The translations under genes were made by a program, and so were the position numbers. A DNA stretch of 61,174 nucleotides, the filler included. It is 4 parts of 4 records of this genome, joined end to end, with 100 filler letters (N's around TTAATTAATTAA, not from the genome) between each part and the next. Parts side by side here need not be neighbours in the genome. Positions count along the whole stretch, not along the records: positions 29,993 to 47,001 come from SRR20825019_2422; 3 more parts are not named here. One strand, given 5' to 3'. This document shows positions 34,020-58,450 of this stretch, piece after piece. Position 1 is the stretch's first letter. Every line of letters starts with the position of its first letter. Under the pieces are notes generated by a model, which was not told the origin of the DNA, did no database searches, and worked only from the letters and a program-made list of their open reading frames with translations.

Positions 34020-34027
34020 TACCTTTG
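34020..34027 (+). promoter_or_regulatory. Bacteroidota -7 promoter element (TAnnTTTG) before menD
   Basis: TACCTTTG, 6 nt before ATG 34034. Confidence 0.7.
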
Positions 34028-34033
34028 CACCGC

Positions 34034-35695
34034 ATGAAATTTTCAAATAAAATTCTTTCACAAACGCTTGTTCAACTATGTTTGGATAAGCATATAGAAC
34101 ATATAGTTATATCTCCTGGTTCACGAAATGCACCGCTTACTATTGGTTTCGGCGCGCATAATGATTTTAAGTGTTTTAGCATCGTTGATGAACGTTGTGC
34201 TGCTTTTTTTGCCTTAGGAATGGCACAACAATTAAACAAACCAGTTGCTGTTGTTTGTACTTCAGGCTCTGCATTGTTAAATTATTATCCTGCTGTTTCT
34301 GAAGCATTTTATAGCGATATTCCACTAGTGGTTATTTCGGCAGATAGACCAGCTAATTTTATTGATATTGGTGACGGACAAACAATTAGACAAGAAAATG
34401 TTTTTGAAAACCATATTCTTTATAACGCCAATTGTAAGGAAGGAAATGAGTTTCAGATACATAATGAAACCGAAATAAACGTTGCGCTTAATACTGCAAT
34501 AGAACTTAAGGGGCCAGTGCATATTAATATTCCTTTTACAGAACCGCTATACCAAACAGTTGAGGAGCAGTTAGTTTGGCCTCAAAATGTAGCGCCACGG
34601 ATAGCTGAAACTTTTAATCTAGATTTAATTCCTTTTATTGAAAAGTGGAACAAGTGCACTAAAAAAATGATACTTGTTGGCACGCTTCCACCCAATAGTT
34701 TGGAGGCTCGTTTTATAAAACAACTTGCAGAAGATAAAAGTATTTTGGTGCTTACCGAAACAACTTCAAACCTTAATAATAATAATTTTATTTCAGCTAT
34801 AGATCAGTTGATTGCACCATTAACAGCTGAAGAATTTAAAAAACTTCAACCAGAAATTTTACTCACTTTTGGCGGAATGGTGGTTTCAAAAAAGATAAAA
34901 GCTTTTTTACGAACGTATCCTCCAAAGGAGCATTGGCATGTAGATTTCAAAAAAGCTTACGATACTTTTTTTGTACTAAATCAACATTTTAAATTAGCTA
35001 TAAATAGTTTTTTCACTGAATTTCTTCCGAAAACACTAGCATTAAATAGTGACTACCAAAACACTTGGCTCAAGGTTAAAGAGCATCGATTAAAACGTCA
35101 TGAGGCGTATATAAATGAAATTCCATATTCAGACTTTAGGGTTTTTTGTGAAATTTTTCAGCAACTTCCACAAAACATTCAGTTACAATTAAGTAATAGT
35201 GCTACCATTCGCTACGCACAACTTTTTAATATACATTCTTCTGCTGAAGTATTCTGTAATCGTGGAACTAGTGGAATTGATGGAAGCATGAGTACCGCAA
35301 TTGGGGCAGGTTATGCATCAAAGCTTTCTACAGTTTTTTTAACGGGTGATCTTAGCTTTTTCTATGATAGCAATGCACTTTGGAACAATTATATTCCGAA
35401 TGATTTTAAAATAATTGTTGTGAATAATGGTGGTGGGGGTATTTTTAGAATTCTTCCCGGTGAAAAAGACTCCAAACTATTTGATACTTATTTTGAAACG
35501 AAACATAATTTAAGTGCCACCCATATTGCTAAAATGTATGGTTTTGAATATATGAATTCCCACACAATTGAAGATTTGGAGAAAACATTAAAAAGTTTTT
35601 TTGATGGAAACGGTGGAAGAAAATTATTGGAAATCTTCACCCCAGCGACGGTGAATGATAAAGTATTGCTTGATTATTTCAAATTCATTTTATAA
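34034..35695 (+). CDS. menD: SEPHCHC synthase MenD
   Basis: ISPGSRNAPL, DERCAAFFALG, CTSGSA, NRGTSGIDG, GDLSFFYD, NNGGGGIF. Confidence 0.97.
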   Translation: MKFSNKILSQTLVQLCLDKHIEHIVISPGSRNAPLTIGFGAHNDFKCFSIVDERCAAFFALGMAQQLNKPVAVVCTSGSALLNYYPAVSEAFYSDIPLVVISADRPANFIDIGDGQTIRQENVFENHILYNANCKEGNEFQIHNETEINVALNTAIELKGPVHINIPFTEPLYQTVEEQLVWPQNVAPRIAETFNLDLIPFIEKWNKCTKKMILVGTLPPNSLEARFIKQLAEDKSILVLTETTSNLNNNNFISAIDQLIAPLTAEEFKKLQPEILLTFGGMVVSKKIKAFLRTYPPKEHWHVDFKKAYDTFFVLNQHFKLAINSFFTEFLPKTLALNSDYQNTWLKVKEHRLKRHEAYINEIPYSDFRVFCEIFQQLPQNIQLQLSNSATIRYAQLFNIHSSAEVFCNRGTSGIDGSMSTAIGAGYASKLSTVFLTGDLSFFYDSNALWNNYIPNDFKIIVVNNGGGGIFRILPGEKDSKLFDTYFETKHNLSATHIAKMYGFEYMNSHTIEDLEKTLKSFFDGNGGRKLLEIFTPATVNDKVLLDYFKFIL

Positions 35696-37549: not shown

Positions 37550-38668
37550 TTATAAGTTTAATTTATTAGCTGTGTTTTTTGGCAATGCATCTTTATGAAC
37601 CGTAATACTAATAGCTTTTAAACGCATATAAGCTTCACTAAAATATACATAACCACCGTTGGCAACACGTGTTTCATCTGTACCCCAACTATTTTTTACC
37701 TTATAGTATTTTGTGCCATTTTGGTCTTGAAGCATCCCTGTAATATGCATTAAATGGTCATCTGTAGTGTCGTAATTTTCAAACTCTTTTTGGCGATACT
37801 CTTGGGTAATTGTTTTTTCTGGATAAACACCTTGCAATGCTTTTATAGTATTCTCAGCGTTTTCTGGAATAACTGCAACACCATCTTTTGATGAAAATGT
37901 TTTTTCACTTACATCACAATCTAATTCTATAGTAAAACCTTTTTCAAGCGCATTGTCTATCGTAGCCATCATTTCGTTTAAAGGAACATTATAAAAACTA
38001 CCATTACTCCAATTGTCTGGAATGTTCAAGATAAATTGTGAATAAAATGGCACATGAGTAAAACTTGTAATATTTACATAGTCTGCTGGCTCAATTTTAG
38101 TCATTTTTAGAAATGATTCAGGCGTATATTGTTTACCTTCATATGTAAAACTGGACACGTTTTTACCTAAATAAATATCTAAAACAGCATCAATTGCAGT
38201 TCTCCATTTCGGGCTCAATTTTCTTCCAGGATTATCAATATATGTTTTTAGCATCGCCTCCAAAACCGCAACCATTTCGGCGTGATTGTATACTGTTTCC
38301 CCTGCGAAAAGACCACTAAAAGCTTCTTCTGGAACCAATCCGTTTTTAGCTACAGAATTCATCACATCATGTGCTAAACCACCTTCACTAAACTGTGATT
38401 TACCTTGGCGCATAATAAAATTTTCAGCTTTTAAAGGATAGGTATTTCGCACTTGGTACATTTCACTTAGATCAATTTTCTTTCCAGTAAGGCGGATAAT
38501 TTCACTTTCTAAAAAAGAAGTGCTACTAAAACTCCAGCAAGTGCCTGTAATTCCTTGGCTAATTACTGGCGTTGCCTCAAGGTCAGTAACAGTTGTAAAT
38601 TTGTATGCTTCCTGTGCGGAAATCGTTATTGTAAAAAGTGTTGCGAGTAAAAAAAGAAGTCTGCGCAT
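37550..38668 (-). CDS. C1-family cysteine aminopeptidase (PepC/bleomycin hydrolase-like), secreted
   Basis: QGITGTCWSF, TTDDHLMHITG, VKNSWG; signal peptide. Confidence 0.92.
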   Translation of the reverse strand: MRRLLFLLATLFTITISAQEAYKFTTVTDLEATPVISQGITGTCWSFSSTSFLESEIIRLTGKKIDLSEMYQVRNTYPLKAENFIMRQGKSQFSEGGLAHDVMNSVAKNGLVPEEAFSGLFAGETVYNHAEMVAVLEAMLKTYIDNPGRKLSPKWRTAIDAVLDIYLGKNVSSFTYEGKQYTPESFLKMTKIEPADYVNITSFTHVPFYSQFILNIPDNWSNGSFYNVPLNEMMATIDNALEKGFTIELDCDVSEKTFSSKDGVAVIPENAENTIKALQGVYPEKTITQEYRQKEFENYDTTDDHLMHITGMLQDQNGTKYYKVKNSWGTDETRVANGGYVYFSEAYMRLKAISITVHKDALPKNTANKLNL

Positions 38669-38771
38669 GGGTTATTTTTTAATATTATTGTTTATCTGAA
38701 GTATTATTTCAAAAGAAATAGAAAATAATACTAAACAATATCTTCTATCTTTGAAAACAAAAATAACAATT

Positions 38772-39611
38772 ATGTCTTCAATCAATTGGAAAACTGTCAA
38801 AGAATATACAGATATAACATACAAAAAATGCGATGGCGTTGCTAGAATTGCTTTTAACAGGCCTGATGTGCGTAATGCATTTCGTCCTAAAACTACAGCC
38901 GAATTACTAGATGCTTTTCATAATGCCCAAGAAGATACCTCTGTTGGCGTGGTTTTACTTTCCGCTGAAGGGCCTTCCACAAAAGATGGAATTTATAGTT
39001 TTTGTAGTGGTGGCGATCAAAAAGCGCGAGGCCATCAAGGATATGTGGGGGATGATGGTTATCACCGGTTAAATATTTTAGATGTGCAACGATTAATACG
39101 TTTTATGCCGAAAGCCGTTATTTGTGTGGTTCCAGGATGGGCAGTAGGTGGCGGCCATAGTTTGCATGTGGTTTGCGATTTGACTTTAGCAAGTAAGGAA
39201 CACGCAATTTTTAAACAAACAGATGCCGATGTTACTAGTTTTGATGGCGGTTACGGAAGTGCATATCTAGCCAAAATGGTAGGGCAGAAGCGAGCTCGCG
39301 AAATCTTTTTCCTTGGTAGAAATTATTCTGCACAAGAAGCTTATGAAATGGGGATGGTAAACGCCGTAATCCCTCATGATAAACTTGAAGATACGGCTTA
39401 CGAATGGGCTCAGGAGATTCTCGCAAAATCACCTACATCTATAAAAATGTTGAAGTTTGCAATGAACCTTACTGATGACGGTATGGTGGGGCAACAAGTA
39501 TTTGCAGGAGAAGCAACACGACTTGCCTATATGACGGACGAAGCAAAAGAAGGTCGCGATGCTTTTCTAGAAAAAAGAAAACCTAATTTTGATAAAAAGT
39601 GGTTACCATAA
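38772..39611 (+). CDS. menB: 1,4-dihydroxy-2-naphthoyl-CoA synthase
   Basis: FCSGGDQK, WAVGGGHSLH, SFDGGYGS, AREIFFL; TATCTTTG -7 element at 38746-38753. Confidence 0.97.
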   Translation: MSSINWKTVKEYTDITYKKCDGVARIAFNRPDVRNAFRPKTTAELLDAFHNAQEDTSVGVVLLSAEGPSTKDGIYSFCSGGDQKARGHQGYVGDDGYHRLNILDVQRLIRFMPKAVICVVPGWAVGGGHSLHVVCDLTLASKEHAIFKQTDADVTSFDGGYGSAYLAKMVGQKRAREIFFLGRNYSAQEAYEMGMVNAVIPHDKLEDTAYEWAQEILAKSPTSIKMLKFAMNLTDDGMVGQQVFAGEATRLAYMTDEAKEGRDAFLEKRKPNFDKKWLP

Positions 39612-41503: not shown

Positions 41504-41536
41504 AAAAAAAAGCCTGTCAAGAAAAACTTGACAGGC
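41504..41536 (-). terminator. intrinsic terminator in the asnB 5' leader (attenuator)
   Basis: Minus strand GCCTGTCAAG-TTTTT-CTTGACAGGC then T8; perfect 10-bp stem ~70 nt upstream of the asnB ATG. Confidence 0.9.
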
Positions 41537-41558
41537 CATATATCGCGACAAGTTTTTG

Positions 41559-41600
41559 TTACGGTAGCTGGTTATTGTTATTAAGGCTGAAAAATGACAT
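41559..41600 (-). CDS. putative asnB leader peptide MSFFSLNNNNQLP
   Basis: ATG TCA TTT TTC AGC CTT AAT AAC AAT AAC CAG CTA CCG TAA; four tandem Asn codons; A-rich upstream region. Confidence 0.8.
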   Translation of the reverse strand: MSFFSLNNNNQLP

Positions 41601-41626
41601 AAACTTGCTTTCTTTTATTTGAATTG

Positions 41627-41659
41627 CTAATTTACTATAAATAAATTAAGGTTTCCAAG
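41627..41659 (-). promoter_or_regulatory. putative Bacteroidota sigma-70 promoter for the asnB leader
   Basis: CTTG-N21-TAAATTAG, one mismatch each to TTTG and TAnnTTTG. Confidence 0.55.
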
Positions 41660-57599: not shown

Positions 57600-58450
57600 C
57601 CCAGCGATGATGCACGCAAATCAAATGGCAGGCTGGGCAGGCGTGCCCCGAGCCACTCATCAGTCGGGTTCAGTAGGCTGAGGGACCCAGCCCGCCCGTG
57701 GCGGCACCCAGCGCCCCGCGTCCCGCACTCTCAGAACGGTGGCGGCCGGTCCCAGTCGGCCCGGCCCGGGGGGGCGGGCTGCGCCGCCTCGCACCGCAGG
57801 GCGGCCACGGGCCCCCCGAACTGAAACACAGTTCGGGGCCGCGCGGCGCGGCGGTCGGGACTTCCGGACAGGTGTCTATGCAATCCCAATTGGGGTGCTC
57901 AGTGCTTGGTACAGTCTGATGCCGAATCGACTTGGGCACGCGCCGAGGCGCCGGCCGCGGCGGGGTGCGTGAGCCCACTGGCGCTGATGACGACCGGACA
58001 CTGGGACAGCCGCCCGGCGGCTGGCTGTGGAGCGGCCGTGGCGTCAGCCGGTCCGTCACTGTGTGGCGACCGGACCGGCTTCAACACCACCGCCCGCCGG
58101 CCCCCCCGGCCGGGCCTCAGATCGGGCAGTGGACGCCGGGTGTAGTACAGGCCGTGCATGATCGACCCGCGGAGGACTTGACCGTCACCGCGGCGAGTGG
58201 TTCCTCGGGGGCCGGGGCTGGGGAGTTCCGGATCGTTGAACACACCGTGACACGGCTAGGGAGCTGCCCGCCCGCGCGCGGTCCTCCGGTCGCCTGCTGG
58301 GCCTGCCCAGGCCCCATGTGACCGGTCCGAGCACTCGTTGAGCCCTGGCTGCTGCCCCCGGGCAGCCCAGGCCCAACTTGGACCGCAGCGCTGCGGCAGT
58401 CCAGCTCATGGCGGGCACGTGGTTGGGCGGGTCCCTTGGACAAGCTAGCA
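57600..58450. promoter_or_regulatory. GC-rich bidirectional promoter island
   Basis: Between divergent SRR1-like and Sly1 genes; ATCCCAATTGGGG at 57883-57895. Confidence 0.6.

Follow-up and report, generated by a model that had tools for sequence, protein, structure and literature searches.

A candidate asparagine-sensing leader-peptide attenuator upstream of asnB in a group of marine flavobacteria

Introduction

Transcription attenuation by means of a translated leader peptide is known for tryptophan, histidine, leucine, threonine, phenylalanine and isoleucine/valine. For asparagine, Firmicutes carry Asn-specific T-box leaders, and the asnA gene of Escherichia coli is under the control of AsnC and Nac. 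In Bacteroidota, to which the host studied here belongs, translation initiation is not led by Shine-Dalgarno sequences, and promoters follow a −7/−33 consensus with a TAnnTTTG box. Among the RNA families of this phylum is Bacteroid-trp (RF01692), which we take to be a leader with Trp codons. Weinberg et al. (2010; PMC2864571) present it as a candidate cis-regulatory RNA of Bacteroidetes.

Here we analyse the region upstream of an asnB gene in a DNA stretch of 61,174 nucleotides (hereafter the window). An earlier note, made from the letters of this DNA, had proposed that the region holds an asparagine-sensing attenuator, and knew of no described attenuator based on Asn codons. The latter statement agrees with Rfam 15 and with the full-text literature, in which we found no Asn-codon attenuator; older comparative-genomics papers available by subscription are outside this scope and may list asnB. 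No Rfam 15 family, among them the leader families, Bacteroid-trp and the T-box, matches the window at its gathering threshold. In E-value mode the same search returned sub-threshold matches to unrelated families only, the best of which scored 26 bits against a threshold of 47. The one paper found to combine asnB, attenuator and leader, PMC9299463, deals with asnB of E. coli as a target of GcvB only.

Results

Layout of the leader

All parts of the leader lie on the minus strand, and each coordinate in the earlier note holds there base for base. The central part is a short upstream open reading frame (uORF) of 13 codons and a stop at positions 41600–41559, with ATG at 41600–41598 and TAA at 41561–41559; the peptide reads MSFFSLNNNNQLP. 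It includes four Asn codons in tandem, AAT AAC AAT AAC (41582–41571), which are the proposed stall site. Both the uORF and its Asn run had been claimed before and can be read directly from the DNA. A single C (41558) separates the stop codon from AAAAACTTG (41557–41549), the 5′ strand of the putative antiterminator, which we call strand 2. This strand is the exact 9-nt reverse complement of CAAGTTTTT (41530–41522), or strand 3, made up of the top of a terminator's 5′ arm and the loop. Direct reading thus bears out the claim that an antiterminator strand starts one base past the leader stop and complements the terminator arm plus loop.

The intrinsic terminator itself occupies 41537–41504 and is recognized both by a terminator scan and by folding. 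It had been described as a 10-bp stem followed by eight T residues. The arms of that stem (41536–41527 with 41521–41512) and the T8 tract (41511–41504) are present, and an additional G:U pair (41537:41511) lengthens the stem to 11 bp around a 5-nt loop (41526–41522). The scan lists the hairpin with 11 pairs, 6 of which are G-C. One more segment, strand 1 (41608–41597), coincides with the translation start region of the uORF, including its AUG, and is a candidate for pairing with strand 2.

The gene proposed to be regulated, asnB (41435–39768), starts 69 nt beyond the T8 tract and encodes a glutamine-hydrolysing asparagine synthetase. With the NCBIfam equivalog NF006949 (cut-off 499), its product scores 933 bits. 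We also considered that the uORF might encode a lasso-type RiPP precursor and asnB the matching cyclase, and rejected this identity, as the cyclase model NF033535 yields 163 bits with a cut-off of 525.

The spacer between terminator and asnB is longer at loci L001 (1383–1500), L003, L041, L046 and L054, where it measures 140–215 nt and contains extra G+C-rich hairpins. On the far side of asnB, menB (38751–39611, plus strand) converges on it. Two genes downstream of asnB, a 372-aa ORF (37550–38668, minus strand) has no NCBIfam match at E ≤ 0.001.

Upstream of the uORF, a Bacteroidota-like promoter had been placed at 41627–41659. We found a candidate −33 element, TTGG (41658–41655), located 20 nt upstream of a candidate −7 element, TAAATTAG (41634–41627), and the two fit the −33/−7 consensus of Bacteroidota. 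Many of the 28 aligned relatives have the same or a similar −7 box about 25–32 nt upstream of the uORF start, and in many of them TTTG or TTGG stands at a similar place; these boxes were searched with a loose rule, which misplaced them in several rows of the alignment. The model behind the sigma-70 promoter scan does not cover the Bacteroidota promoter type. Of the promoter claim, what stands is that the boxes exist and that many relatives have similar ones; the −7 box fits TAnnTTTG loosely. The stretch between the candidate promoter and the uORF is A-rich. Inspection by eye showed nothing else resembling a promoter box in the 69 nt from the T tract to asnB.

The layout of the leader exceeds chance, as seen from the Asn codon runs, the folding of the RNA and the recurrence in relatives described below. 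On both strands of the 61-kb window, four tandem AAY codons occur twice, with 0.12 occurrences expected from shuffles. Folding of the 131-nt leader gives a z-score of −3.25 against shuffled sequences. The second AAY run (34775–34786, plus strand) is in frame within a 556-aa ORF (34025–35695) and is ordinary coding sequence.

Distribution and linkage to asnB

With the AsnB protein of the window, we fetched 80 asnB loci from species genomes; the closest match among them, in Aequorivita aurantiaca, has 92% identity. An Asn-rich uORF in the same layout is found at 13 of the 80 loci, whose hosts are Aequorivita, Ulvibacter, Luteirhabdus, Patiriisocius, Jejudonia and other Flavobacteriaceae assemblies. 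These 13 loci and the window provided the 14 copies on which a covariance model was trained. Applied to the window and all 80 loci, the model scores the 14 copies at 78–123 bits, and the next best sequence at 31 bits. According to the same model, 67 of the 80 loci, including all Flavobacterium, are without the element. A generic scan for Asn-rich uORFs in front of motif-less asnB loci, which covered the 76 loci whose upstream sequence was 200 nt or longer, gave 4 hits in the sense and 9 in the antisense orientation, i.e., chance level. The Marinimicrobia and gammaproteobacterial entries among the 80 loci have no Asn-rich uORF within 350 nt.

Whole genomes contain one strong copy each (5 of 5 searched with the covariance model), and the element is likewise single in the leader-bearing genomes of the family and genus sets below. 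In a sample of the family that comprised 151 genomes, the model found 17 matches, 16 of which are real. A match of 49.7 bits in this sample was rejected as a bare terminator without asnB. The weak matches of 38–50 bits (L086, L088 and L103) are all plain terminators of this kind, with no asnB.

Within the genus of L001, the element is present in 44 of 57 genomes by covariance model, and its occurrence follows that of asnB: the two occur together in 42 genomes and are both missing from 12, and the 3 apparent mismatches (G180, G199 and G201) are all at contig ends. Wherever we looked with tblastn, asnB lies directly 3′ of the leader (19 of 19 loci). The genomes with neither the leader nor asnB (E ≤ 1e-100) are G156, G168, G176, G178, G179, G182, G188, G195, G200, G202, G205 and G206. 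These 12 may be asparagine auxotrophs, may use another route or may be incomplete assemblies.

The gene on the other side of the leader is less constant. In the window, the upstream co-directional gene (44124–41710) encodes a fused 2-oxoacid dehydrogenase E1. Among 27 relatives, E1 is directly upstream in 10, another ORF of about 170–270 aa stands between E1 and the leader in 14, and the flank contains no E1 in 3. Despite this changing neighbour, asnB follows the leader in all 27. Since the 5′ neighbour is inconstant and asnB is constant, we assign the leader unit to asnB rather than to the gene before it.

In five leader-bearing genomes, we also looked for other genes of asparagine metabolism. 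No asnA was found in any of the five by a search that had E. coli and B. thetaiotaomicron as positive controls. Each genome has exactly one asnB above the cut-off, namely the copy behind the leader, and each has the gene for asparaginyl-tRNA synthetase (asnS). With one asnB, no asnA found and asnS present, charged tRNA-Asn should be a direct read-out of the asnB product.

One further match of the covariance model, L087 (1498–1610; G003:C1, about 58311–58423), was rejected as an Asn leader, as it has Trp codons instead. It comes from a Patiriisocius that also carries the Asn leader. Its 16-codon uORF contains three tandem Trp codons and is followed by a complementary strand that includes CCACCA and by a strong terminator, upstream of an ORF resembling anthranilate synthase I (trpE-like). 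As a perfect TAnnTTTG box is separated from the ATG by only about 8 nt, this uORF may be nearly leaderless. The L087 leader scores below every Rfam gathering score.

The leader frame is kept as codons

An intact Asn-rich uORF is present at all 28 aligned loci and at all 28 further loci from the genus. Of the latter, 26 were found by pattern and 2 by eye, 14 further matches from the genus were left out, and the resulting total of 56 may include genomes reached twice. The arrangement recognized in the earlier note, i.e., an Asn-rich uORF, a terminator and a strand complementary to it, is kept in front of asnB at 56 of the 56 related loci examined.

The start codon is ATG in 27 of the 28 aligned sequences and GTG in one. 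Lengths of the uORF fall into eight classes of 12–19 codons, all in frame. The leader peptides at the 56 loci have 4–10 Asn residues, and the copy in the window, with 4, represents the minimum. Asn accounts for 46% of the non-initiator residues, compared with 3.9% in those ORFs of the window that are at least 300 aa long, and no other residue is comparably enriched in the leader peptides. There is a codon preference as well: AAT makes up 77% of the Asn codons in the leaders vs. 56% in the same long ORFs. Where the Asn repeat is interrupted, the interruptions are whole codons.

Between the Asn run and the stop codon there are exactly three sense codons at 56 of 56 loci, and strand 2 begins one base past the stop in the loci examined. 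The last residue of the peptide is Pro or Thr in every case, and the N-terminal residues vary. A C follows the stop codon in all 28 aligned sequences and in 27 of the 28 further genus loci; in the exception, L121, a second stop codon comes directly after the first.

Alternative structures of the leader RNA

A covariation check of the terminator and the antiterminator, both of which had been proposed from the window alone, revealed compensatory changes in both. In a MAFFT alignment of 14 sequences, 97.4% of the terminator cells are paired, and both sides have changed in 6 of its 11 pairs. Its covariation score is 0.453 vs. 0.248 for shuffles, and none of 500 shuffles reached this score. The count of double-sided changes was likewise reached by 0 of 500 shuffles, and the count of further pair types by 20 of 500. 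When the partner strand is slid by one column, pairing falls to 44–53%. An alignment of 28 sequences fitted to the model gives a result in agreement with that of the 14, and RNAalifold predicts the terminator helix independently.

The antiterminator, i.e., the pairing of strands 2 and 3, is retained in 96.0% of cells in the 14 sequences and in 96.4% of 252 cells in the 28. Among the 28, one of its pairs occurs as A-U in 14 sequences, as G-C in 9 and as G-U in 4. Where the terminator arm changes from CAAG to CAGG, strand 2 retains a G-U wobble. The covariation score is not reached by any of 500 shuffles; the double-sided changes are confined to 2 of the 9 pairs and are common to related sequences, and the covariation is modest. 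The antiterminator is short, rich in A-U pairs and weak next to the terminator: the bare 9-bp helix has −5.5 kcal/mol and the duplex −9.2 kcal/mol, against −18.6 kcal/mol for the terminator hairpin.

A third, candidate pairing, helix 1:2, would join 41608–41597 with the stop codon and strand 2 (41559–41548), and as a duplex it has an energy of −10.3 kcal/mol in the window. The mean over 28 sequences is −10.4 kcal/mol, compared with −3.6 kcal/mol when strand 1 is shuffled, and z is below −2 in 25 of 28 sequences. Covariation of its pairs does not rise above the shuffle controls; part of the helix is made up of the start and stop codons, whose conservation is expected in any case. We retain helix 1:2 in the model on energy grounds only. 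A small hint comes from the sequences that end in TAG, where 3 of 8 have a synonymous CTA as the second codon, which restores a pair of helix 1:2. The conserved bases next to the stop codon also belong to this helix.

When a block the size of a ribosome is placed on the Asn codons, equilibrium folding still gives helix 1:2 and the terminator, with no antiterminator. This outcome counts against the attenuator model, although we regard it as a limit of equilibrium folding. As equilibrium folds favour helix 1:2 plus terminator, the model requires a steric effect of the ribosome or folding under kinetic control.

RNAalifold additionally places a small hairpin at 41562–41545 (minus strand), where the last sense codon and the stop pair with the 3′ portion of strand 2 and the nucleotides behind it. 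It has two double-sided changes and competes with both helix 1:2 and helix 2:3. It could be a pause hairpin.

Proposed mechanism and alternative explanations

Judged from the sequence, the element very probably controls asnB as a leader-peptide transcription attenuator, with the ribosome as mediator and charged tRNA-Asn as the signal that is sensed. The parts, their conservation, pairing, covariation and spacing and the exclusive link to asnB are observed. From the way they are arranged we infer ribosome stalling, the size of the footprints, the succession of folding events and the effect of asparagine, as follows.

Transcription would start about 20 nt upstream of the leader ORF. The RNA would have four strands, the fourth being the 3′ arm of the terminator, and could form the alternative helices 1:2, 2:3 and 3:4. 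When asparagine is plentiful, the ribosome would reach the stop codon and its footprint would hide strand 2. After the ribosome is released, or if none has loaded, strand 1 would capture strand 2. Hidden or captured, strand 2 would leave strands 3 and 4 to form the terminator, and RNA polymerase would halt at the T8 tract without reaching asnB. If charged tRNA-Asn is scarce, the ribosome would stall on the Asn codons. The spacer of three codons and the stop would then place strand 2 just beyond the stalled ribosome, with strand 1 covered or kept apart. As strand 3 emerges, the free strand 2 could pair with it and so prevent the terminator, and transcription would read through into asnB.

The distances within the leader are consistent with this scheme. 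The edge of a ribosome's footprint lies about 12 nt past the first base of the A-site codon. A ribosome at the stop codon would thus extend over this codon and the following C into strand 2, of whose 9 bases it would cover about 8. With the A site at the last Asn codon, strand 2 would start about 4 nt past the footprint edge. By this spacing, a stalled ribosome should free strand 2 and a terminating ribosome should hide it. In E. coli, a C-terminal Pro and the fourth-base context affect termination. By analogy, the conserved last Pro or Thr and the C after the stop may slow release and so hold the terminating ribosome on strand 2. As strand 1 is the start-codon region, an untranslated leader would lock itself off, and a ribosome would have to load before strand 2 is made. 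In summary, the attenuator proposed in the earlier note agrees with the analysis wherever its predictions could be followed in the sequence, and the candidate helix 1:2, the three-codon spacer and the last Pro or Thr are additions to it.

Other explanations have to be weighed against the attenuator. The unit might be a small gene of its own, for a micropeptide or a small RNA, that happens to stand beside asnB and attenuates nothing. A candidate promoter and a strong terminator of its own would suit such a gene, as would a peptide conserved in length class and last residue. We consider this very unlikely, as the conservation is limited to the Asn run, the length of the spacer and the last residue, with the N-terminal half free to vary. 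Moreover, the strand past the stop complements the terminator arm and co-varies with it, the element occurs solely before asnB and is absent where asnB is absent, and the 69-nt gap from the T tract to asnB offers, by eye, no further promoter-like box. Still less credence is due to the idea that the hairpin merely terminates the E1 transcript and that the uORF is a chance frame in an A+T-rich spacer. The E1 gene is indeed co-directional, and the terminator scan predicts no other terminator between it and 41537, but the hairpin is about 170 nt past the E1 stop, and 17 of 27 relatives retain the whole unit in front of asnB even though its immediate 5′ neighbour is another gene or no E1 is present there. 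A chance frame is also at odds with the AAY runs, expected only 0.12 times in the window, and with the motif-less asnB loci, where Asn-rich uORFs are at chance level (4 sense vs. 9 antisense). We regard this explanation as hardly credible.

Two further alternatives would let the leader regulate asnB in another way. Tandem AAU/AAC triplets and the conserved block after the stop could in principle be the binding site of a trans-acting factor, comparable to TRAP on the Bacillus trp leader, in which case the reading frame would be incidental. The structural evidence would fit a ribosome or any other bulky ligand alike. The coding evidence, in contrast, makes such a factor highly improbable: all 56 loci, in eight length classes, keep start, stop and frame, the repeat is interrupted by whole codons, and the spacer has a fixed number of codons. 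Nor is there a candidate gene for a binding protein linked to the leader, whose neighbours vary. If the leader is translated, it might still report the general speed of translation, or stress, and not asparagine specifically. Whatever slows the ribosome on the leader would shift the balance towards the antiterminator, and the conserved Pro or Thr before the stop together with the C after it suggest tuned termination kinetics. An unspecific sensor is very improbable, however, given a peptide in which Asn provides 46% of the residues and none else is comparably enriched, and given that the regulated gene is the only dedicated asparagine synthetase found in 5 of 5 genomes. The Asn-specific leader-peptide attenuator thus remains the reading we prefer.

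Discussion

We put the chances at about even that the element represents a previously undescribed RNA family, and with it the first Asn-specific leader-peptide attenuator, having strand 1 at the start codon and the Pro/Thr–stop–C arrangement among its features. Neither the start-codon strand 1 nor the Pro/Thr-C stop context is a design feature that has been stressed in classical attenuators.

If the proposed mechanism is true, it extends attenuation to a new amino acid, asparagine, and explains how a group of marine flavobacteria controls asnB, which is apparently their only gene for asparagine synthesis. It would also provide a compact ribosome-stalling switch in Bacteroidota, a phylum whose translation initiation differs from that of E. 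coli and in which few cis-regulatory RNAs have been characterised. For annotation, the uORF and the RNA element mark a gap, being missing from Rfam 15.

Among the systems that serve the same physiological aim, AsnC and Nac are DNA-binding proteins, whereas the proposed sensor of the element in the window is the translating ribosome. The T-box is closer in that it, too, couples Asn genes to the supply of asparagine through a switch between terminator and antiterminator. It binds uncharged tRNA directly and has no uORF, in contrast to the translating ribosome proposed here, and Rfam finds no T-box match in the window. Bacteroid-trp (RF01692) shares with our element the phylum and the status of a candidate cis-regulatory leader. 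It differs in amino acid, gene and sequence, and the element in the window does not match it.

The closest likeness is to the enterobacterial attenuators. As in trpL, hisL, leuL, thrL, pheL and ilvL/ivbL, there is a short uORF rich in codons for the end product. The alternative helices 2:3 and 3:4 are alike, with 3:4 as the intrinsic terminator, and the candidate helix 1:2 would be the third; the stop codon adjoins strand 2, and a biosynthetic gene lies downstream. The element in the window would sense asparagine, and it has no sequence relationship to any of them. It also differs in its first strand: in the enterobacterial leaders strand 1 is formed by the control codons, whereas here it is the start-codon region, and helix 1:2 would therefore enclose the whole uORF.
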